Positions 5,451-55,112 are shown, numbered from the stretch's first letter. The stretch: 64,000 bases of DNA from an uncultured Fimbriimonadaceae bacterium (GCA_964405335.1 CAYONP010000005.1:9202-73201); one strand, 5' to 3'. The notes: generated by a model from the letters alone, not told the origin. Numbers and translations: made by a program.

Positions 5451-6362
5451 CTAGAGCTCGACCCGGCGGCCCCAGCCGCCGCCGTTGTCATCGTCCTCGT
5501 CATCCTCGGGCGCGGGCCGCTGCAGATCGGCCGGCGGCTTCTCGGCCGGCTCTTCGGCCGGCGGGTCGGCCGGCGCCTCCAGCTCGCGGCGGCGCGAACG
5601 GCGGCCCTCGGACGGCTGCTCGGCGGCGCGGCCGGCCCGCTTGCGCATCTCCTCGAGCTCGATATCGACCTGCAGGTCGGCCTCGCTCTGCTGCCGCGAA
5701 CGGCCGGAACGCCGGCGGCCGGTCTCGCTGTCGATCCGCTCGGCCAGCTCGCGGTCGGGCTCCAGGTAGTCCTCAATCTCGCGCGACGCCTCGGTCCGCG
5801 CCTCGAGGTCTTCGATCTTGCCGGCCATCTCGTCGAACTTGTCGAACGCCGTCTGCTCGGTCAACGAGCCGGTGTCGATGCTCCGCGCCCTGCCGCGCCG
5901 GCCCTCGATCTGGCCCTGCGCGCGCTGCCGGTAGATGTCCGCCTGCAACGTGCGCCGCTTGTCGCGCGCCTCGCGGAGCCGCGCCTCGAGCTGCTTGTAC
6001 TGCTCGCGGAGCTTGTCCACCGCGTCCTGCTGCTCGGCCAGTTGCGTGTCGTACTCGCCGGCCAGGTCTTCGTAGGTGCGCTTCTTGCGCAGCGCGTCGC
6101 GGGCCAGGTCGTCCTTCGCCGCGTCGACCGCCTGCTGCGCCTTGCCCGCCCACAGACGGGTCAGGTCGTCGGCCTCGTCGAGCTGCCGGCGGAGGCGCTT
6201 CTCATCGGCCAGCGCGCGGATCAGGTGCTGCTTCGCCTGGCGCAGCGCATCCTCCATGTCGGTCAGGTAGAGGTCGAGCTGCTTCTCGGGATCCTCCGCC
6301 GACGAGAGCAAATCGTTGATGTTCGACTTGATGATCCTGCCCAGCCGCTTGCCGAAGCTCAC
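5451..6362 (-). CDS. pspA: phage shock protein A / IM30 family protein
   Basis: SFGKRLGRIIKSNINDLLSSAEDPEKQLDLYLTDMEDALRQAKQHL and KAQQAVDAAKDDLARDALRKK match the PspA N-terminal helix and core. GTG start with GGAAGGAG RBS 6 nt upstream. The longer ATG-start ORF (to 6431) begins with Arg-rich junk. Confidence 0.8.
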   Translation of the reverse strand: MSFGKRLGRIIKSNINDLLSSAEDPEKQLDLYLTDMEDALRQAKQHLIRALADEKRLRRQLDEADDLTRLWAGKAQQAVDAAKDDLARDALRKKRTYEDLAGEYDTQLAEQQDAVDKLREQYKQLEARLREARDKRRTLQADIYRQRAQGQIEGRRGRARSIDTGSLTEQTAFDKFDEMAGKIEDLEARTEASREIEDYLEPDRELAERIDSETGRRRSGRSRQQSEADLQVDIELEEMRKRAGRAAEQPSEGRRSRRRELEAPADPPAEEPAEKPPADLQRPAPEDDEDDDNGGGWGRRVEL

Positions 6363-31945: not shown

Positions 31946-34777
31946 TCACGGTGCGAGCGAATAGACCCCGCCGGCGACCGTTTCGAGGCTTACCAGCCCG
32001 CCGTCGGGCCGGCGCACGCGGCACGGCCCGCCGCGGTCGCTGCGGATGACCGCACCGGCCAGACGCCCGTCGCGCCAGGCCAGGTCGACCTCGAACCCGC
32101 CGCGCGCGCGCAGGCCGCGGACTTCGCCCGTCGGCCAGGTCGACGGCAGCGCCGGCAGCAGCCGGATCTCGCCCAACTGGCTCTGGACCAGCAGCTCGCA
32201 GACCGCCGCGGTGGCGCCGAAGTTGCCGTCGATCTGGAAGATGTGCGGCGGGTGGAGGTCGAACAGGTTGGCCTCGGTGCTCTTGGCCAGCAGGTTGAGC
32301 AGCCCCTCGGCGGCCCGGTCGCCCTCGCCCAGGCGGGCCCAGAAAGCGCAGATCCAGGCCTGGCTCCAGCCGGTGTGCCCGCCGCCGTGTGCCAACCGGC
32401 GCTCCAGGCTCCGCCGAGCGGCGGCCAGCAGCGCCTCGTTGCCCGGCCGCAGCAGCTCGTCGCCGGGGTGCAGGGCAAACAGGTGCGAGAGGTGCCGGTG
32501 GCCCGGCTCCGGCTCGTCGAAGTCCTCCGGCCACTCCTGCAACTGGCCGTGCCGGCCAATCCGCATCGGCGTCAGCCGCGCACGGGCGGCGGCTAGCTCG
32601 GCGGCAAGATCCGGCTCGATGTCCAGCACGCGCGCCGCCTCGAGCACATGGTCGAACAGGCTGCCGATCAGTTGCTGGTCCATGGTCGGACCGAGGCAGA
32701 GGTTGGCCTGCGCGCCGTCGGCCGTGCGGAAGCTGTTCTCGGGCGAGACGCTCGGCCCGCCGCGCAGCAGCCCAGTGCGCGGATCCTCGACCGTCCAGTC
32801 GAGACAGAACTCGGCCGCGCCACGCAAGATGGGCCAGGCAAAGCGGCGCAGCCAGGCCTCGTCGCGGGTGAACTCGTAGTGGTCCCACAGGTGCTCGCAG
32901 AGCCACACCCCGCCGGTCGGCCAGCAGCCCCAGCCGACGCCCCAGCCGGGCGCGGTGTAGCCCCACACGTTGGTGATGGTGTGCGCGGTCCAGCCCCGCG
33001 CGCCGTACATCGTCCGCGCCGTCCGGCCGCCCGGCTCGACCAGGCTGGCGATCAGCTCGAACAGCGGCTCGGCGCAGTCGCTCAGGTTGGCCGTTTCGGC
33101 CGGCCAGTAGTTCATCTGCAGGTTGATGTTCAGGTGGTAATCGCTGTGCCAGGCCGGCCGCAGCTCGTGGCACCAGAGGCCCTGTAGGTTGGCCGGCAGG
33201 CTGCCCGGCCGTGACGAGGCGAGCAGCAGGTAGCGGCCGTACTGCGCATGGAGCGCGACCAACCCCGGATCATCGCCGCCGGCACGCACCGCGGCGAGGC
33301 GTTCATCGGTCGGCAACGCGTCCTGGGCGGAGTGGCCGAGCTCGAGGTGGAAGCGGTCCATCGCCGCCTGATGCTCGGCCACGGCCGGGTTGCGCAGCGC
33401 CTGATAGGCCTTGGCCGCGGCGCGGTCGACTTGCCCCTGCGCCGCGGCGGCCGGCTCGGCCTCGCGAAAGCCCGTCGCCGCGGCGATCACGATGGTCGCC
33501 GCATCGGCGCCGTCGACCACCAGCGTGGCGCCCTCGGCGCGCAGCGTGCCGCCCTCGGGGACGATCCGCGCCCGGGCGGCGAAGCGCATCCCCGCCCCGC
33601 CGTCGCAGGCGCCGTCGAGGGTGAGGGTGTCGCCCGCCGCGCCGGCCGTCGCATCCGCCTCGCGCGACAGACCGGCGGCGAAGGTGAGTCGCCCCGGCCG
33701 ATCGCAACTCAGTCGCAGCACCAGCACCCCGTCGGGCGCCGAGGCGAACAGCTCGCGGGTGAACCGCGCCCCGCCGGCGAGATACTCGACCCGCGCCAGG
33801 CCGCGCCGCAGGTCGAGCGTGCGGACGTAGTCGTCGACCCGTTCGGGTTGGTCGGCGAAGGTGAGGGTCAGGTCACCGAGGGTCTGGAATGTGGTGTGAT
33901 AGACCCCGTCAAACCCGCCGCCGAGGTTGGTCAAGTGCTGCTGCGCCAGGCCTTGCGCCTCGGTATAGCGGCCGTCGAGCAGCAGCGCGCGGATCTCCGG
34001 CAGATGCTCGAGCGCCGCCGGGTTGTCGGCCTCGGCCGGCCCGCCCGACCAGAGGCTGTCCTCGTTGAGCTGCAGTCGCTCGATTTCGAGCCCGCCGTGG
34101 GGCATCGCCCCCAGCCGACCGTTGCCGACCGGCAGCGCGGCGAACCAGTCCTCGGCCGGGGCGCGGTACCACAGCGTCAGTGGCTCCGCCGGCGGGCGCT
34201 GTCGGCCGGCGACGATGGTCCGCGGCCGGCCCGCCGGCCGGCCCGCCGCCGCGCGATACTGCTCCGCGGCCATGGCCAACTCTCCTTGCGCGAGTGACGC
34301 CCACCGCGGGTCGTCGCCGAGCCGGAACTGCCACTCGCCCGCCAGCTCCAGCTCGCCGCGCGGGCCGACCAGCCGCAGCGGCCCGGCGGTGATGCCGCCC
34401 GAGCCGCCGGCATCGTAGACCCGCACGGCAATCAGGTTGTCCTCGCCGAACCGCCACCCGGCCGCCGGCACGCGATACTCACGCTGCGCCTGCCAGGCCG
34501 TCCGCGCGTCGGGCGGCATCGTCCCCGTGGCGCCGACCAGCGCACCATTGACGTAGGTCTCGTCGCAGTCATCGATCTGGCCGAGCCGGAGGGTCAGGTC
34601 GGCGCCGGCCCAGTCGGCCGGCAGGTGGACGAAGCAGCGGTACCAGGCGAAGCCGTCATGGCTGCGCTGTGCGGCCGGCAGCACCTGGCTCCAGTCGCCG
34701 GGCACCGGCACCAGCGACCAGTCGGGTCCGGCGAGCAGGATGCAGAGGGCAAGGGTGGTCATCGCGGCACGATGCAC
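31946..34777 (-). CDS. glycoside hydrolase family 95-like (alpha-L-fucosidase type) with N-terminal sugar-binding jelly-roll domain
   Basis: [39 protein letters not shown] and the (alpha/alpha)6 region are GH95 hallmarks. The N-terminal GH2-like sugar-binding domain (FAWYRCFV…NGALVG). Confidence 0.75.
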
Positions 34778-34832
34778 CGGCGGCGGCGGAATCCCTCCGA
34801 CAGGACTCTCGCAAATCCATTGCAGAAAAGTG

Positions 34833-34858
34833 GGAACGCGGTTCCGGCTGACCCGTCT
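34833..34858 (+). promoter_or_regulatory. ECF sigma-type promoter GGAAC-N16-CGTC upstream of Spy-like/sigma operon
   Basis: tGGGAACgcggttccggctgacCCGTCtc, with -35 GGAAC at 34833-34837, an exact 16-nt spacer, and CGTC at 34854-34857. It lies about 30 nt upstream of ATG 34888, leaving room for a GAGGAGG RBS. This is consistent with autoregulation by the ECF sigma encoded two genes downstream. Confidence 0.5.
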
Positions 34859-34887
34859 CGGAAGGTGGATGCGCGAGGAGGTAGATC

Positions 34888-35340
34888 ATGAAGCGCATGA
34901 TTTGGACGCTGGCGGCGGCGCTGATGACCGTCGCGGCGGTGCACGCGCAGGCCGCTGATCCGGCGCCGGACACCTGTCCGCTGTGTGGCCGGGTCGGGCC
35001 GGTCGGTCCGGTGTGGCAGAGCCAGGCTCAGGCCGACCTGCGCCAGGCGGTGCGCGAGGCCAACTGGGAGTTGTACCGGCTGATGAACACCGAGCCGGTC
35101 GACGAGGCGGCGGTGGCCGCGCAGCAGGCGCGGGTCGACGAGCTGCGCCAGGAGATGTGGGCCCAGCGCGACCTGGAGCGGCAGCAGATGCAGCAGACGC
35201 GGCCGGGCCAGGGCTTCGGCCGGGGCAACGGGCCGTTCGGTCAGGGCCGTGGCCAGGGCTTCGGACGCGGCTACGGCCGCGGCGGCGGGCAGCGGGCGGG
35301 CTGGGGCCGCGGCTTCGGTCGTGGGCCGAATGCCTGGTGA
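34888..35340 (+). CDS. periplasmic Spy/CpxP/ZraP-family chaperone-like protein with CxxC motif and FGRG-repeat tail
   Basis: Signal peptide MKRMIWTLAAALMTVAAVHAQA. Helical core (LRQAVREANWELYRLMNTEPVDEAAVAAQQARVDELRQEMWAQRDLERQQMQQ), as in Spy/ZraP. CPLCG after the signal peptide. Tail GFGRGNGPFGQGRGQGFGRGYGRGGG. Confidence 0.55.
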   Translation: MKRMIWTLAAALMTVAAVHAQAADPAPDTCPLCGRVGPVGPVWQSQAQADLRQAVREANWELYRLMNTEPVDEAAVAAQQARVDELRQEMWAQRDLERQQMQQTRPGQGFGRGNGPFGQGRGQGFGRGYGRGGGQRAGWGRGFGRGPNAW

Positions 35341-35352
35341 ACTGAGGCGCGC

Positions 35353-35907
35353 ATGGGCGCTGGGGCATGGTCGAATGGTGCGGGCGGGCTCGTCGAGCGC
35401 GCCCGCACCGGCGACCGCGGCGCCCAGCAAGCGCTGTTCGAGGTCTGGCAGATGCCTGTCTACAACTACCTCAAGCAGATGACCCGCGACCCCGACGCGG
35501 CCGCCGACCTGACCCAGGAGACCTTCGTCCGGGCGCTGGGCAACCTGCGCCGCTTACGTCACGACGGCGCGTTCCGGTCGTGGCTGTTTCAGATCGCGCA
35601 CAACCTGGTCAAGGACCGCGCCGCGGCGCCGCTGGTCGAGCTGGATGAGGATCCGCCCGAGACCGCCGATCCGGCCGCCGGGCCAGAAACGAGCCTCGAG
35701 CGCGACGAGCTGAAGAGCGCCGTCGATCGGGCGGTGGCCGGGCTCTCGGCCGAGCATCGCGAGGTAGTGCTGCTGCACCACCTGCGCGGCCTAGAAGTCG
35801 ACGAAATCGCGCACAGCCTGCGCCTGCCGGCCGGCACGGTGAAGTCGCGGCTGGCGCGGGCGCGGGGCATCCTGCGGCGGCGCCTGGCGCCGTATGTGGA
35901 GGGCTGA
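35353..35907 (+). CDS. RNA polymerase ECF-type sigma factor (sigma-70 region 2 + region 4)
   Basis: Region 2 LFEVWQMPVYNYLKQMTRDPDAAADLTQETFVRA…FRSWLFQIAHNLVKD. Region 4 REVVLLHHLRGLEVDEIAHSLRLPAGTVKSRLARA. Confidence 0.85.
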   Translation: MGAGAWSNGAGGLVERARTGDRGAQQALFEVWQMPVYNYLKQMTRDPDAAADLTQETFVRALGNLRRLRHDGAFRSWLFQIAHNLVKDRAAAPLVELDEDPPETADPAAGPETSLERDELKSAVDRAVAGLSAEHREVVLLHHLRGLEVDEIAHSLRLPAGTVKSRLARARGILRRRLAPYVEG

Positions 35908-35908
35908 C

Positions 35909-36328
35909 ATGGACTGCGACAAGCTGCGCCAACGGCTGCCCGAGCTGATCGAGGGCTGCCTCAAGCAGCGCGACCGGCTGGCGCTCGAGCAGCACCTCGG
36001 GTCGTGCCCCGAGTGCCAGGCCGAGCTGGCCTGCCTGCGCCGGGTCGCCTCGCTGTTCGAGACCCTCTGCGACGAGCCGCCGCCGGCGGGTCTGTGGGAC
36101 CAGGTCTCGGCCCGGCTGCCGGTCGCCGCGCCGCGGCGGCTGCCGCGCCTGGCCCTGGCCGGCGCGCTCGCAGCCGGGCTGATTGGCCTGGCGCTGCTGC
36201 GCCCGCCGGAGCCCGAGCCGGCGACGCCATTCCTGCGCGACCACTACCGCGCCACCTCGCTGGTCGCCCTGGGCAACCCGGCGGTCAGCGACGTGATGGC
36301 CTATGTGGTGACGGAGCCCGGGCAATGA
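35909..36328 (+). CDS. anti-sigma factor, zf-HC2 type, single TM
   Basis: MDCDKLRQRLPELIEGCL…HLGSCPECQAE (H-x3-C-x2-C zinc motif) and one TM (LALAGALAAGLIGLALL). It lies immediately after the ECF sigma. I chose the Met 2 nt after the sigma stop, with GGAGGG RBS. Confidence 0.65.
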   Translation: MDCDKLRQRLPELIEGCLKQRDRLALEQHLGSCPECQAELACLRRVASLFETLCDEPPPAGLWDQVSARLPVAAPRRLPRLALAGALAAGLIGLALLRPPEPEPATPFLRDHYRATSLVALGNPAVSDVMAYVVTEPGQ

Positions 36329-37299
36329 TCCGCTCCCTCCTGGCCCTGCTGCTGGCCGCCGGCGCCGCCGGCGCCGACGACCTGGCGCTGCTCCGCCGCG
36401 CGGTCGAGGCCGACGCGGCGCGGCCGCGCATCGGGCGGCAGAGCATCGAGGTCTATCCCACGGAGGCGGCGGTCCGCAGCGAGGTCGAGGTCGCCTTCGA
36501 CGGCGCCGGACATGCCCGGCGCGAGCACCGCAGCGGCCCGAGCGCTGGGCTGGTGGTGATCAGTGAGGGCCGTTACGAGTGGCTGCGCGGGCCCGGCGCG
36601 ACGGCCTGGGTGCGGACCATCTCGAGCCGCGCCGGCGATGTCGATCTCCGTGCCGGGCAGCTCGACCGGCTGGCTTCGAACTACACGATCAGCATCAGCC
36701 GCGGCGGCGAGGTGGCCGGGCGGGCGACGCAACGCCTCGACCTCACTCCGCGCCGCGAGGGCAACCCGTCGCGGCGACTGTGGGTCGACGCGGCCACCGG
36801 CCTGACGCTCCGCTGCGAAATCCGCAACCGAGCCGGCGAGCTGGTCCAGCGCTGGAGCTACGCCAGCCTGCGCTATGCCGCGCCCGACCCGGCCACGGTC
36901 CGCCTGCCGGCCGACGCCGAACGCTACACCGGCGCCGCGCCGGGCAGCCTCGAACAGGTCGCCAGCCAGGCCGAACTCGAACGGCGGCTCGGCCATCCGG
37001 TGCTCCGGCCGCGCAACCTGCCCGCCGGCTATATCGCCAGCGGCTGGTTTGTCCGGGCTTGCCGCGAGGGTGGCTTCACGCCGGTGACGACTTTCTCGGA
37101 CGGGCTTAACGCGGTCACCCTGATGGAAACTCGCGGCCGTGGCAGGGGACGCGGCCGCCGCTGGCGCGGTGGGCGATGTCAGATCCAGCCGAGCCGGCTG
37201 CAGGTCGTCGTCCGGGTCGGGGTCGACGGGCACGAGGCGGTGATTGTCGGCGACCATGCGCCGGCCGGGCTCGAGGCCATGGCGCGGAGTTTGGAGTGA
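36325..37299 (+). CDS. MucB/RseB-like periplasmic sigma-E regulatory protein (LolA-fold), tentative
   Basis: ATGA overlap with the anti-sigma stop. Signal peptide MIRSLLALLLAAGAAGA. Weak but patterned similarity to RseB (…D(R/L)AGELVQRW… and a C-terminal helix). The upstream 107 aa of the ORF are Arg/Gly junk. Confidence 0.45.
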   Translation: MIRSLLALLLAAGAAGADDLALLRRAVEADAARPRIGRQSIEVYPTEAAVRSEVEVAFDGAGHARREHRSGPSAGLVVISEGRYEWLRGPGATAWVRTISSRAGDVDLRAGQLDRLASNYTISISRGGEVAGRATQRLDLTPRREGNPSRRLWVDAATGLTLRCEIRNRAGELVQRWSYASLRYAAPDPATVRLPADAERYTGAAPGSLEQVASQAELERRLGHPVLRPRNLPAGYIASGWFVRACREGGFTPVTTFSDGLNAVTLMETRGRGRGRGRRWRGGRCQIQPSRLQVVVRVGVDGHEAVIVGDHAPAGLEAMARSLE

Positions 37300-37304
37300 C
37301 CACC

Positions 37305-37907
37305 ATGCACCGGCGGAGCTTCTCACCGCGAGCCTTCGTCTCGTTGGTCGCCGCCGTCCAACTGGTGCTGCTGGCTGCCAGCGGGCTGGTGCTCTTGGTC
37401 GCGCCGGCGTGCGGAGTGGCGGCCCGCATGGGCTGGGCGGTCGGCGGGCTGAGCAAGGAGCAGTGGCAGGCGGTCCACGTCAACACCGGGCTGGTCTTCC
37501 TGATCATCGGCACCTGGCATCTGGTCTTCAACTGGAAGGCGCTGCTGCACTACCTGCGCCGGCGGCTCGGCGCGGAACGACGTTGGCGGCTCGAGCCGCT
37601 CTATGCCGGGCTGTTCGGCCTGCTGCTGGTGCTCGGCCCGGCCACCGACATGGCGCCCTTCGCGCAGGTGACCGCCCTGTCCGAACGGCTCTCCGCGGCG
37701 TGGACCGCCCGCGTCTCGACGTCTGGCGGGCAGAGCTGGGGACAGATGAACCTGGCCGAGCTCTGCGAGGCCGCCGAGCTGAGCCTGCCGGCCGTGCTCG
37801 ACCGCCTGGCCGGCCTCGGACTGGCGGCCGACGACACCACCTCGGTGCGCGCCGTGGCCGACGCGCTCGGCTTGCCGCCCAGCCAGCTGGCCGAGGCGTT
37901 GCGGTAA
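37305..37907 (+). CDS. DUF4405-like small membrane protein with C-terminal helix-hairpin-like region
   Basis: Start at internal Met MHRRSFSPRAFVSLVAAVQLVLLA (TM1) with GGAG RBS. The second helix has conserved His/Trp (LVFLIIGTWHLVFNW). Confidence 0.45.
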   Translation: MHRRSFSPRAFVSLVAAVQLVLLAASGLVLLVAPACGVAARMGWAVGGLSKEQWQAVHVNTGLVFLIIGTWHLVFNWKALLHYLRRRLGAERRWRLEPLYAGLFGLLLVLGPATDMAPFAQVTALSERLSAAWTARVSTSGGQSWGQMNLAELCEAAELSLPAVLDRLAGLGLAADDTTSVRAVADALGLPPSQLAEALR

Positions 37908-37955
37908 CGCGCAGGACCGGCCGGGCCGGCGGCCAACCTCTCCACGGAGCCGCCG

Positions 37956-40187
37956 ATGCCGACTCTCTGCCTGCTGATCCTGCTCACCGCGCCGGCCGAC
38001 CCGTGGGCCGCCACCGCCGAGCACGGCCGGCAGGGCGCGGAGGCTCTGGCCTGTGCCCAGGGCGTGCTGCACGGCTGGTGGGCGATCCGCGACGAGGCGA
38101 CCGGTCTGCTGCCGCAGCACGTGACGCAGAACGTCTGGACGCCGTCCAATGCGGCCGCCGACCTCTACCCGTTCCTCGTCCTGACCGCCCACTGGACCGA
38201 GCCCGCGCTGCTGCCCGACCTGCTTGCCACGCTGCGGCACGAGCTCGCCTTGACCACGCGCATCGGCGTCATGGGCGACAACTACGATCTCGGCGCGCAT
38301 CGCTTCAGCCACGCCGAGCCCGACCTGGCGCGGCTGATCTTCGGCGCCTCGGAGTACTGCAAAGACGGTCTGCTCCCCGTCTGGGAGCTGGCCGGCCGCG
38401 GCGTCTGGTTCCACCGTCTGGTCGACCTCGAGCAGGCGGTCTGGGCCGCCGCGCCCATCGAGACGCCGTTCGGCCGGCTGCCGGCGGCCGATACCGAGGT
38501 CAACGGCGAGCAGCTCCAGGTCCTGTCGCGGCTCTGGTGGGCCACGCGCGACGCCCGCTACCTCGACTGGGCCAGCCGCATCGGCGAGGCTTACTGCCAG
38601 GAGATCCTGCCCCTCGGCGGCTGGTTGCCGGCGCATGTCTGGGACTTCGCCGCGCATCGCCCGGCGCGCGACCTGTTCAGCCTCAACGACCACGGCAACG
38701 AAATCGTCCTCGGCCTGGCCGAGTGGCACCACGCCCTGCGCGCCGCCGACCCGGCGCGCGCGGCGGCGGCGGAGCCGGCGCTGCGACGGATGTTCGACCG
38801 ACTGCTCGAGGTCGGCCGCAGCCCCGACGGGCTCTGGTTCGCCCAGCTCAAGCCGACCACCGGCGAGGTCCTCGCCCGCGGCACGCCCGATACCTGGGGC
38901 TATGCCCTGTGCGGCGTCTACACCTTCGGCCTCGGCACTGGTGAGGAGCTCTACCGCGACGCGGCCCGACAGGCGCTGGCCGCGCTCGACCAGCCGGCTT
39001 ACTACGACTGGGGCGGCGCGGACGCCTTCGCCGACTCGATCGAAAGCGGTCTGCTGCTGATCAACCGCCTCGACGAGCCGGCGGCGCTGCGCTGGCTCGC
39101 TGAGGTGGTGCCGCGCCTGCTGGCCAAGCAGCAGCCCGGCGGCATCGTCGAGGGCTGGTACGGCGACGGCAACACCGCCCGCACCTGCCTGATGGTCGCC
39201 ATGTATCACAGCCAGGGCGCCCGCGTACTGCCCTGGCGGCCCGACCTGCACCTCGGCGCCGTGCGCGACGGCGAGTCGCTGCTGGTCTCGCTCGAGTCGC
39301 CGGCCGACTGGTCCGGCACGCTCCACCTCGACTACCCACGGCACCGCGAGCATCTCGGTCTGCCGGTCGACTATCCGCGCTTGAACCAGTTTCCGGAGTG
39401 GTTCACGGTCGAGCGCACCGGGCTCTACACGGTCGAGCGAATCGGCGTCGACGCGCCGCTGGAGCTGCGCCTGGGCGAGGAACTGATCGCCGGCCTGCCG
39501 CTCGAACCGGCCGACGGCGGGCCGCTGCGCCTGCGCATCGCGCCCTACCTGTCGCCGCCCTATGGCACCCAGATGCCGCGGCTGGCCGGGCCCGGCGTGG
39601 TCGGCTCGACCGGCGCGTTCAGCCTCGATCTGGAGGTCGGCAACCCGTCCGACCAGCCGGTCTCGCTCCGGCTCTCTGCCGATCTCGGCACGGTCGACCC
39701 GGCCGACCTTGAGCTGCCCGCCGGCGGCACGGCGACGGTGCGGCTCAGTGGCCAGGTGGCCGAGGAGCGGACCGTCACGGTGACGGCCACTGCGCGCGAG
39801 CCGTGGCGGAGCACGGCGCACCGGGTGCGGGTGCTGCTCGACCCGCTGCTGGTCGGTTTCGCCGACTGCGACGGCGGCGAGGTCTATGCCGGCGAGAGCT
39901 ACCAGTGGTGCGGTCGCGGGCCGTTCGAGGTGACGCTCGACGCACTGCCCGGCGTCGACCAGGTGCTCGTCCTCCGCTGGGGCGCCAAGGGGGATCAGCG
40001 CCGGGCACGGGTCACCGTGGCCGGATCGTCGCACGAGCTGACGCACGGTGGATACGACGGCTGGGAGACGGTCGAGGTCGTGCTGCCGGCCGCGGCGGTG
40101 ACCGAACCGCGGCTGACGGTGCGCGTCGAGTCGCTCGGCGATCCGGCGGCGTTCATCAGCGAGATGCGGGTCCGTCGCACCGAATGA
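37956..40187 (+). CDS. secreted hypothetical protein (743 aa), possible glycan-active enzyme
   Basis: Signal peptide MPTLCLLILLTAPADPWAA. A long non-repetitive ORF. The antisense 907-aa ORF 37323..40046 is Arg-rich and rejected. Confidence 0.55.
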   Translation: MPTLCLLILLTAPADPWAATAEHGRQGAEALACAQGVLHGWWAIRDEATGLLPQHVTQNVWTPSNAAADLYPFLVLTAHWTEPALLPDLLATLRHELALTTRIGVMGDNYDLGAHRFSHAEPDLARLIFGASEYCKDGLLPVWELAGRGVWFHRLVDLEQAVWAAAPIETPFGRLPAADTEVNGEQLQVLSRLWWATRDARYLDWASRIGEAYCQEILPLGGWLPAHVWDFAAHRPARDLFSLNDHGNEIVLGLAEWHHALRAADPARAAAAEPALRRMFDRLLEVGRSPDGLWFAQLKPTTGEVLARGTPDTWGYALCGVYTFGLGTGEELYRDAARQALAALDQPAYYDWGGADAFADSIESGLLLINRLDEPAALRWLAEVVPRLLAKQQPGGIVEGWYGDGNTARTCLMVAMYHSQGARVLPWRPDLHLGAVRDGESLLVSLESPADWSGTLHLDYPRHREHLGLPVDYPRLNQFPEWFTVERTGLYTVERIGVDAPLELRLGEELIAGLPLEPADGGPLRLRIAPYLSPPYGTQMPRLAGPGVVGSTGAFSLDLEVGNPSDQPVSLRLSADLGTVDPADLELPAGGTATVRLSGQVAEERTVTVTATAREPWRSTAHRVRVLLDPLLVGFADCDGGEVYAGESYQWCGRGPFEVTLDALPGVDQVLVLRWGAKGDQRRARVTVAGSSHELTHGGYDGWETVEVVLPAAAVTEPRLTVRVESLGDPAAFISEMRVRRTE

Positions 40188-53993: not shown

Positions 53994-55112
53994 TCACTCA
54001 GGCACCTCGACAGTATACACGTGACTCCAGCCCCCGCCGTTGTCGCTGGTGTAGATCACCCGCCGCCCGTCCGGGCTGAAGCTGGGGTGCGGGTGCGTCC
54101 ACTGCGGGCCGTAAACCCCCTCCGGCATCGCCGGCGTTGGGGCTGGGTCGCTCGCCGGGTCGTCGCCGCGGATGATGCTGGTGTCGATGCCCGCGCCGGC
54201 CGCCGGCACGGTCAGCGCCCACTGCCTGCCCTGCGCGCTGGCGTTCGGCTGGCAGAGCCGCCGCGCCGCGCCGGTGATCGGGTCGAGCAGAAACAGCCCG
54301 CGGCTCGGGCGCGCCGTGTCGCAGACAATCGACCGGCCGTCGCGCCGGCCGCAGGCGTGCCAGGCGGCGAACTCGGCCACCGTGCGGACGGCGCCCGAGT
54401 CGGGATCGATCGCCCGCAGCGCCCGCGGCCAGTGGGTGAAGATCACCTCGTCGCCGGCGCCAAGCCACGATTCGTGGACAATCCACTCGTCCGTCGTCTG
54501 CTCATAGAGCGGCCGCAGGCCGGATCCGTCGGCCCGCACCAGCCACATCCGTTGCGTCGGCGGGCCGCTGAACAGCAGTGTCTCCGGGTCGCACGGCCGG
54601 AACTGCAGGTGGCCGACCTCGTCGCAGCGGAGCACGGCGTCGGCGCCCGAGCCGTCGCAGCAGACGAGGGCCAGCTCGCCGTAGCCGTCGTAGCGGCAGC
54701 CGACGGCGATCCGCCGGCCGGCCGGATCGAGACTGCAGTTGCCCAGCCGCGCGCCGGCGAAGCGGGCCAGCGGCGCCACCTCGAGCGTCTCGGCATCAAT
54801 CCGCAGCACCTGTTCGCCGGCGGTGGCATAGAGCGCGCTGCCGTCGGGCGCGACGGCGGGCGAGAAGGGGTTCAGGTCGACCCGCGCGGTGACCTGCATC
54901 AGCGCGCCGTCAGCCTCGTCGCAGGCCAACAGGTTGGGGTAGCCGTCGCGGTAGCAGATCAGGTAGAACCGCCCGCCGGCGGCCGGCCACGAGCTGTTGG
55001 TGAAGTAAAGCTGATGATGCATCGCCGGCGCGGCGGTCCAGCGAGTCACCCGCGCGCCGGTGGCCACGTCGCGGAAGGTCCGGCGCTCAGGACGCAGGCG
55101 CACGCCGATCAC
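53994..55112 (-). CDS. oligogalacturonide-lyase-like / TolB-type beta-propeller protein
   Basis: N-terminus RTFRDVATGARVTRWTAAPAMHHQLYFTNSSW parallels the Ogl N-terminus (TFDTYQDAATGVKVTRLT…YFY). C-terminus HPHPSFSPDGRRVIYTSD is the Ogl/TolB propeller motif. The GTG start overlaps the TGA of the upstream gene (GTGA). A start at 55103 is an alternative. Confidence 0.55.
   Translation of the reverse strand: MIGVRLRPERRTFRDVATGARVTRWTAAPAMHHQLYFTNSSWPAAGGRFYLICYRDGYPNLLACDEADGALMQVTARVDLNPFSPAVAPDGSALYATAGEQVLRIDAETLEVAPLARFAGARLGNCSLDPAGRRIAVGCRYDGYGELALVCCDGSGADAVLRCDEVGHLQFRPCDPETLLFSGPPTQRMWLVRADGSGLRPLYEQTTDEWIVHESWLGAGDEVIFTHWPRALRAIDPDSGAVRTVAEFAAWHACGRRDGRSIVCDTARPSRGLFLLDPITGAARRLCQPNASAQGRQWALTVPAAGAGIDTSIIRGDDPASDPAPTPAMPEGVYGPQWTHPHPSFSPDGRRVIYTSDNGGGWSHVYTVEVPE

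Follow-up and report, generated by a model that had tools for sequence, protein, structure and literature searches.

A 64,000-nucleotide (nt) stretch of DNA from an uncultured Fimbriimonadaceae bacterium (GCA_964405335.1, CAYONP010000005.1:9202-73201), here called the window and numbered from its first letter, carries a compact operon of five genes (g1 to g5) behind a promoter motif of the extracytoplasmic function (ECF) type. The operon is probably an autoregulated ECF sigma/anti-sigma module of the envelope-stress kind, resembling rpoE-rseABC and conserved in a little-sampled clade of Armatimonadota. The features concerned are listed below, with protein lengths in amino acids (aa).

34824-34832, + strand: A-rich stretch GAAAAGTG, adjoining the -35 element on its 5' side; possibly an extended -35 or UP-like element
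34833-34837, + strand: -35 element GGAAC, invariant in six lineages
34853-34858, + strand: -10 element CCGTCT with the core CGTC; CCGTC invariant in six lineages
34875-34881, + strand: ribosome-binding site GAGGAGG of g1, 6 nt 5' of the ATG, as read from the sequence
34888-35340, + strand: g1, 150 aa, secreted ZraP/CpxP/Spy-like protein, predicted to form a helical hairpin followed by a disordered Gly/Arg-rich tail
35353-35907, + strand: g2, 184 aa, ECF (group IV) sigma factor
35909-36328, + strand: g3, 139 aa, single-pass anti-sigma factor of the ZAS type
36325-37299, + strand: g4, 324 aa, periplasmic RseB/MucB homologue with a signal peptide and two domains
37305-37907, + strand: g5, 200 aa, DUF4405 membrane protein with a C-terminal extension of ~60 aa

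Operon packing and promoter conservation

The genes are tightly packed. The intergenic distances are 12 nt between g1 and g2, 1 nt between g2 and g3 and 5 nt between g4 and g5, while g3 and g4 overlap by 4 nt, the stop codon of the first and the start codon of the second sharing a common ATGA. A first-pass annotation, made from the sequence, had described five co-directional genes with the anti-sigma gene coupled through ATGA to the next one, and both statements hold: all five open reading frames (ORFs) are present on the + strand at the coordinates listed above. The G+C content around the operon in the window is high, at ~70-78%.

Related loci were collected through RseB-like homologues, one genome scan, one metagenome scan and the homologues of g1 obtained by an exhaustive HMMER search. 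The genome and metagenome scans, both made with an RseB-like alignment, returned one locus each, the former in a Fimbriimonadaceae metagenome-assembled genome (MAG). The g1 homologues include one on a 38.5-kb contig labelled Armatimonadota_UBA10988. Six lineages come with upstream sequence: the window (together with its near-identical copy L003), L007, L008, L009, L014/L015 and L016/L017. Their RseB-like proteins share, as far as measured, 47-55% identity with that of the window; across L004-L010 the identity to g4 ranges from 47 to 66% (49% in L008, 47% in L009), and the L016 anti-sigma is 42% identical to g3. The order g1, sigma, anti-sigma, RseB (and DUF4405) is kept in L003, L005, L007, L008, L009, L013 and L016/L017, and each of the six lineages has g1 or a homologue of it in first place. 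The flanking genes vary between loci, the upstream neighbours being all different. The labels of the related loci (Fimbriimonadaceae MAG, UBA10988 MAG) belong to Armatimonadota, and by sequence comparison the operon is conserved across several lineages of this phylum.

The motif GGAAC-N16-CGTC is found at 34833-34857 on the + strand and ends 30 nt 5' of the ATG of g1 (34888). L003, L007, L008, L009, L014, L015, L016 and L017 each contain a single copy of it, always 30-37 nt 5' of the start codon of the g1 homologue, which amounts to one match per locus over 65 kb of related loci. In the alignment of the six upstream regions, GGAAC and CCGTC are the sole invariant blocks and are separated by a fixed 15 nt. 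The probability of the motif in shuffled sequence is 2e-4 to 2e-3 per intergenic region, and its five independent recurrences at the same place are therefore not due to chance. The reading of GGAAC-N16-CGTC as an ECF promoter, proposed in the first-pass annotation, is thus borne out by the same motif, spacing and position in six lineages: this is strong comparative evidence that it is a working promoter that would drive the whole operon. Transcription is predicted to start at about 34864-34867. A promoter scan of 34500-38300 gave no sigma-70-like promoter.

Both elements have parallels in characterized systems. CGTC was proven by mutagenesis to be the -10 element for other ECF sigma factors, and residues R171, S172 and R176 of Escherichia coli sigmaE contact the GGAAC of the -35 element (PMC3397946). 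When g2 is aligned with E. coli sigmaE by HMMER, K, S and R (within GTVKSRLARAR) stand at these three positions.

Two further features surround the -35 element. The six letters AAAGTG precede GGAAC in the window, L015 and L016 and are missing from L007, L008 and L009, which is weak evidence for an additional element in the A-rich stretch. The -35 element itself belongs to a short inverted repeat, GGAACgcgGTTCC (34833-34845), which is probably incidental because it is not kept in the other loci. The sole "terminator" reported by the scan is this same GGAACgcgGTTCC hairpin on the minus strand, lying over the -35 element; being window-specific and meaningless at that place, it was discarded.

A more distant cousin, L012, has an operon (629-2779) made of a sigma gene, a zf-HC2 anti-sigma gene and an RseB gene (28% identity, with a canonical MucB_RseB_C domain), without a g1-like first gene. 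Its structure suggests that g1 may have been added to an older sigma/anti-sigma/RseB core. A GGAAT-N17-CGTC sequence is found there at 556-581, directly 5' of the sigma gene; as a single case, it is only a lead.

The encoded proteins

The identities given to g2, g3, g4 and g5 in the first-pass annotation are confirmed by Pfam matches. The g2 protein matches Sigma70_r2 (5.7e-15), Sigma70_r4_2 (1.5e-11) and an ECF domain, and of the sigma regions it has 2 and 4 only. It passes the generic ECF model TIGR02937 with 96.7 bits (cutoff 42.9) and stays below the RpoE equivalog TIGR02939 (95.3 vs 236.15 bits); no other equivalog is reached. Its closest solved structures are AlgU (E 1.7e-19) and RpoE (1.3e-16), SigW being also among them.

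The g3 protein matches zf-HC2 only, above the cutoff (5.1e-07). Eight homologues all keep residues C3, H29, C33 and C36, which fall in the exact register of RsrA C11/H37/C41/C44 and of the Neisseria anti-sigmaE NMB2145 (PMC2893595). With its H-x3-C-x2-C motif and an upstream Cys, g3 has the sequence signature of a class I ZAS anti-sigma factor. A single hydrophobic, presumably transmembrane (TM), segment at 78-99 is followed by a periplasmic tail of ~40 aa with a conserved YLRDHYR...GDV motif. Against the PDB, g3 gave weak matches only, to RslA-like, RsiW and DdvA proteins.

The g4 protein matches the MucB_RseB N-domain (7e-11), its C-domain not being seen by Pfam, and finds MucB in the PDB at E 3.5e-06. 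An AF2 model built from five sequences has a mean predicted local distance difference test score (pLDDT) of 84.9. With this model, Foldseek retrieves full-length MucB and RseB over ~315 columns (E ~1e-17, TM-scores up to 0.69/0.78), LolA-like proteins ranking far behind. Since these matches extend over full-length MucB and RseB, g4 is, on the basis of its model, a true two-domain RseB homologue. The C-domain carries an invariant insertion, a Gly/Arg-rich loop TRGRGRGRGRRWRGGRC (residues 269-285; 37129-37179) of low model confidence. The TRGRGRGRGRRWRGGRC loop is missing in the canonical relative P0007 and is longer in P0006.

The last gene product, g5, matches DUF4405 (8.7e-11; 42.6 bits vs a cutoff of 26.7). 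H58, H72 and the loop residue C36 are invariant in four homologues, and the two His are located on a TM helix. About three hydrophobic segments can be read from the sequence, of which the hydropathy scan resolved the N-terminal one only. DUF4405 and FezC proteins bind haem b, and the DUF4405 proteins are proposed to be transmembrane electron carriers (PMC11334425). With only some three hydrophobic segments and two His, g5 would have to dimerize, by analogy with FezC. It is present in the window, L004, L005/L006 and L016/L017. In L008, the ~430 nt after the RseB-like gene (5877-6312) contain no credible ORF, and a gene on the opposite strand comes next; as this locus has no DUF4405 gene, g5 is either dispensable or lost there. 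The C-terminal extension of ~60 residues (~141-200; 37725-37907; GQM.xAELC...) is common to the window and the UBA10988 locus (L016, 8720-9397) and is missing in L004 and L005. Helix-turn-helix matches in this extension (E 0.004-0.011) were ruled out, being below the cutoffs and in a segment whose topology suggests a periplasmic location.

The protein encoded by the first cistron, g1, had been called a Spy/ZraP-like chaperone. The homology stands, although it is weak, while a chaperone activity would be pure inference by analogy. The profile of the g1 family (seven members) finds Salmonella ZraP (3lay) with E 7.1e-06, profile positions 18-135 aligning with chain residues 53-169 of 175 and reaching into the Gly-rich tail of ZraP. 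Metal_resist is the only recurring Pfam family, matched by three of the seven members, each time below the cutoff. The N-terminus has, by eye, a signal-peptide-like hydrophobic stretch. The AF2 model shows a helical hairpin at residues 46-104 (pLDDT ~90) and a disordered Gly/Arg/Gln tail. Each hairpin has one GPWWQS motif and no LTXXQ motif; invariant in the family are G40, P41, W43, Q44, S45, Ala/Leu positions, D72 and E97. A CPLCG motif of the window protein is not conserved, several homologues having Cys in the tail. The tail itself (residues 105-150; 35200-35337) is Gly/Arg-rich, contains GxGRG repeats and is predicted to be disordered. Homologues with two tandem GPWWQS hairpin units are encoded in L007 (497-1156, 219 aa) and L016 (6001-6645, P0011, 214 aa).

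The family of g1 is tiny. An exhaustive phmmer search of 1.84 billion representatives gave eight matches, and three of them (P0009, P0011 and P0012) are real relatives, making three other clusters in the whole set; a word-indexed search with g1 gave two proteins. P0010 and P0013-P0016 were ruled out as repetitive proteins matched on short stretches. A DUF2076 match of g1 was likewise discarded as Gly-rich bias below the cutoff.

Proposed mechanism and alternatives

The protective role of RseB and the layout of the rpoE-rseABC and algU-mucABC operons are established (PMC6737893), and they provide a model for the probable function of the present operon. Without stress, g2 would be kept at the inner membrane by the zinc-binding domain of g3. 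The g4 protein would bind the short conserved periplasmic tail of g3 and block the first proteolytic cut, as in the E. coli RseA-RseB pair. An envelope signal of some kind would then free g4, upon which g3 would be degraded by regulated proteolysis and g2 released. The freed sigma factor would read its own promoter (GGAAC-N15-CCGTCT, 34833-34858) and place the five genes on one mRNA, resulting in positive feedback. Being promoter-proximal, g1 would be the main periplasmic output, with a holdase or buffering function; like ZraP and CpxP, it may also exert feedback on the sensor. A haem-b-type accessory role can be proposed for g5, which takes the place of rseC and is present in most but not all lineages. 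Of this picture, the sequences themselves establish the gene identities and folds, the operon packing and the conservation of gene order and promoter; the reading of the promoter by g2, the binding of g3 by g4, the proteolysis and the roles of g1 and g5 are proposed.

Several observations weigh against this reading. The first-pass annotation had itself named a motif frequent at random as the finding that would speak against the promoter, and the window taken alone comes close to it: GGAAC-N16-CGTC has two matches where 0.90 are expected, a number reached by 22 of 100 shuffles, and spacings of N15-17 give four matches vs 2.5 expected. The matches elsewhere in the window (N16 at 54599 and two extra ones with N15 or N17) all lie inside long ORFs, and no second regulon member for the motif is visible in these 64 kb. 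With counts at chance level, enrichment within the window was dropped as promoter evidence; it is the conservation across lineages that rescues the motif. On the protein side, the periplasmic part of g3 is not homologous to RseA, and its binding by an RseB homologue is proposed by analogy. No site-1 or site-2 protease gene is found within the operon. The Metal_resist (PF13801) match of g1 is below the cutoff (E 1.4e-4; 22.5 bits vs 29.2), its fold is a single hairpin instead of the two-LTXXQ fold, and Foldseek ranks ZraP first (root mean square deviation of 1.7 Å over 58 residues) and CpxP second with E values of 0.4-0.9 that are not significant, Spy being lower still. The absence of g5 from L008, a Fimbriimonadaceae MAG, indicates that this gene is not essential to the core. 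Finally, the scan of 34500-38300 gave no terminator-like site after g5, and read-through is possible there; the 3' end of the operon is in consequence set only by the loss of synteny.

Instead of being a periplasmic output, g1 might be a sensor or co-regulator of the pathway, either like CnrX, the periplasmic metal sensor of the PF13801 family by which the anti-sigma factor of cnrYXH is controlled, or a CpxP/ZraP-like repressor that is titrated away, making the operon a metal- or folding-stress switch gated by g1. This is a possible reading, though a doubtful one. Metal_resist, the only Pfam family to recur among its homologues, is called a heavy-metal resistance protein and is found near metal-linked ECF groups, and ECF281, ECF290 and ECF291 tie PF13801 to ECF sigma factors and metal stress (PMC7826278). 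The best solved relative, ZraP, is described as a chaperone and a repressor of ZraSR. The CPLCG motif of the window protein and the tail Cys of several homologues could be read in the same sense, and a component exerting negative feedback would be well placed at the head of an autoregulated operon. However, no set of His, Cys or Met ligands is conserved in the hairpin, CPLCG is window-specific, and no metal efflux genes were found in the flanking sequence retrieved for the window, L008 and L016. Moreover, with g4 a dedicated periplasmic regulator is already in place. Still less likely is a combined circuit, in which a CpxP/ZraP-type titratable inhibitor (g1) would be the first self-induced cistron of an RseB-guarded ECF proteolytic switch. 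In such a circuit, the Gly/Arg tail of g1 and the loop of g4 would bind one another, or else an anionic ligand of the envelope common to both, and g5 would provide a redox input from the RseC position.

A redox switch, in which thiol oxidation of the ZAS domain of g3 frees the sigma factor as in RsrA, g5 couples the redox state and g4 is secondary, is quite improbable. It would account for the full Cys-26 residues-His-x3-Cys-x2-Cys quartet of g3, invariant in the eight homologues and in the register of RsrA and NMB2145. It would also fit the preservation of H58, H72 and C36 in g5, a member of a family of haem-b-binding proteins proposed to carry electrons across the membrane (PMC11334425). Yet several anti-sigma factors with a ZAS motif show no response to thiol oxidants: NMB2145, with the same quartet, was insensitive, and these oxidants leave ChrR unaffected (PMC2893595). 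The membrane anchor, the conserved periplasmic tail and the translationally coupled RseB homologue favour a periplasmic input, and g5 is absent in L008. The ZAS motif is also carried by RsiW, a membrane-spanning anti-sigma factor controlled by proteolysis, which again speaks against a redox switch. Very unlikely, lastly, is that the motif is read by another ECF sigma factor of the organism, the operon being part of a cascade and not autoregulated. GGAAC/CGTC-type elements are indeed common to many ECF groups (PMC3397946), and PMC7826278 gives an average of ~10 ECFs per genome. On the other hand, the motif accompanies the operon in six lineages whose neighbouring genes differ, ECF operons are usually autoregulated, and region 4.2 of g2 keeps the residues that contact GGAAC. 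The L012 locus, which has no g1, shows its GGAAT-N17-CGTC directly 5' of the sigma gene.

Relation to known systems and genomic surroundings

The autoregulated envelope-stress module proposed here is most readily compared with rpoE-rseA-rseB-rseC and algU-mucA-mucB-mucC of ECF02. The order of a sigma gene, a single-pass anti-sigma gene, an RseB/MucB regulator and a small membrane protein is the same, as are the full two-domain RseB fold after the anti-sigma factor, the GGAAC -35 element and the probable autoregulation; among solved structures, g2 is closest to AlgU/RpoE. In contrast, the anti-sigma factor is here a zf-HC2/ZAS protein with a periplasmic tail of ~40 aa instead of RseA_N/RseA_C, and the last gene encodes DUF4405 and not RseC_MucC. 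The -10 element is CGTC, a ZraP-like gene precedes the sigma gene, RseB has a Gly/Arg loop, and g2 reaches 95 bits vs the 236 of the RpoE equivalog. The locus thus lies outside ECF02: it has RseB, a known conserved partner in that group, and lacks the sigma score, RseA and RseC. The description "sigma-E-like" holds only loosely, through the closeness of g2 to AlgU and RpoE.

ECF sigma factors have also been found together with PF13801 proteins. In ECF281, a zinc-finger anti-sigma factor at +1 is followed at +2 by a PF13801 "heavy-metal resistance" protein; in ECF290, PF13801 is at +2 as well, both groups being formerly part of ECF20 (Casas-Pastor et al. 2021, PMC7826278). The present operon shares with these groups an ECF sigma factor and a ZraP/CnrX-family periplasmic protein in one cluster, and with ECF281 the zinc-finger anti-sigma factor. 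However, its ZraP-like gene is promoter-proximal, at -1, and is only a sub-threshold PF13801 match, the RseB homologue (g4) is at +2, and DUF4405 is present. The gene order of ECF281 is followed at +1, by the anti-sigma factor, and not at +2, where PF13801 is absent. CnrH is a member of ECF291, with an anti-sigma factor similar to CnrY at -2 and an operon for a metal efflux pump close by (PMC7826278). The cnrYXH operon differs from the present one by its CnrY-type anti-sigma factor located upstream (-2), by its lack of RseB and by the adjacent metal efflux genes, and g1 shows no evident counterpart of the CnrX metal ligands. In Cupriavidus metallidurans, the periplasmic CnrX, of the PF13801 family, is encoded 5' of the sigma gene in that same operon.

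With ZraP, CpxP and Spy, g1 shares secretion and, as predicted, a helical hairpin, with ZraP also a Gly-rich C-terminal tail, and with all of them a probable induction by its own envelope-stress system; ZraP and CpxP additionally repress their sensor. Unlike g1, those proteins belong to two-component systems and not to ECF sigma factors, zraP and cpxP being divergently transcribed from theirs. Moreover, GPWWQS of g1 stands opposite the "TTEQQ" segment of ZraP, and g1 has a single hairpin and a tiny family. As to g5, the Pfam match above the cutoff and the conserved His pair on a TM helix are in line with the DUF4405/FezC/MsrQ-like haem-b cytochromes. Characterized DUF4405 proteins have six TM segments and four His and are linked to ApbE flavinylation (PMC11334425). 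They differ in this from g5, with its approximately three hydrophobic segments and two invariant His, and an ECF-operon context is not described in PMC11334425.

Having the periplasmic protein gene as first cistron had been called a distinctive arrangement. This was overstated, as PF13801 genes were already known in ECF operons (at +2 in ECF281 and ECF290, and with CnrH in ECF291; PMC7826278). What is new is the combination of a ZraP-like promoter-proximal cistron, a ZAS anti-sigma factor together with RseB, and DUF4405 in the place of rseC. Neither the component classes nor the circuit logic are new, and no concept is overturned. For Armatimonadota, a phylum in which experiments on regulation are nearly absent, the operon nevertheless offers an ECF sigma/promoter pair validated by comparison. 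It also suggests that an RseB guard can pair with a ZAS-type anti-sigma factor having a periplasmic tail of ~40 residues, and the small size of the g3 tail would make it a convenient system for mapping RseB recognition. With ZraP/CpxP-like and DUF4405 proteins in one ECF operon, sigma control may be linked to chaperone feedback and to the redox state. Since sigma factor, anti-sigma factor and promoter are each defined, these three parts lend themselves to a direct test as an orthogonal switch for gene expression.

An Rfam scan of the whole window gave no match. The operon is bordered on its 5' side by a divergent glycoside hydrolase gene of family GH95 and on its 3' side by a gene for a 743-aa protein:

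31946-34777, - strand: 943-aa glycoside hydrolase of family GH95, its catalytic domain matched at E 9e-169
37956-40187: 743-aa protein with a signal-like N-terminus, without a significant Pfam domain (DUF5719, E 0.02)

The annotated GTG start of the GH95 gene is probably a few codons 5' of the true start. The 743-aa gene is 68% identical to the L004 gene in the same position. It was ruled out as a sixth cistron, being conserved only in L004, the closest relative. In L005 an unrelated gene stands in its place, in L016 a gene on the opposite strand, and because of this exchange the conserved unit is considered to end at g5 (at g4 in L008). Owing to its position near the GH95 gene, the 743-aa protein could be an uncharacterized carbohydrate-active enzyme.

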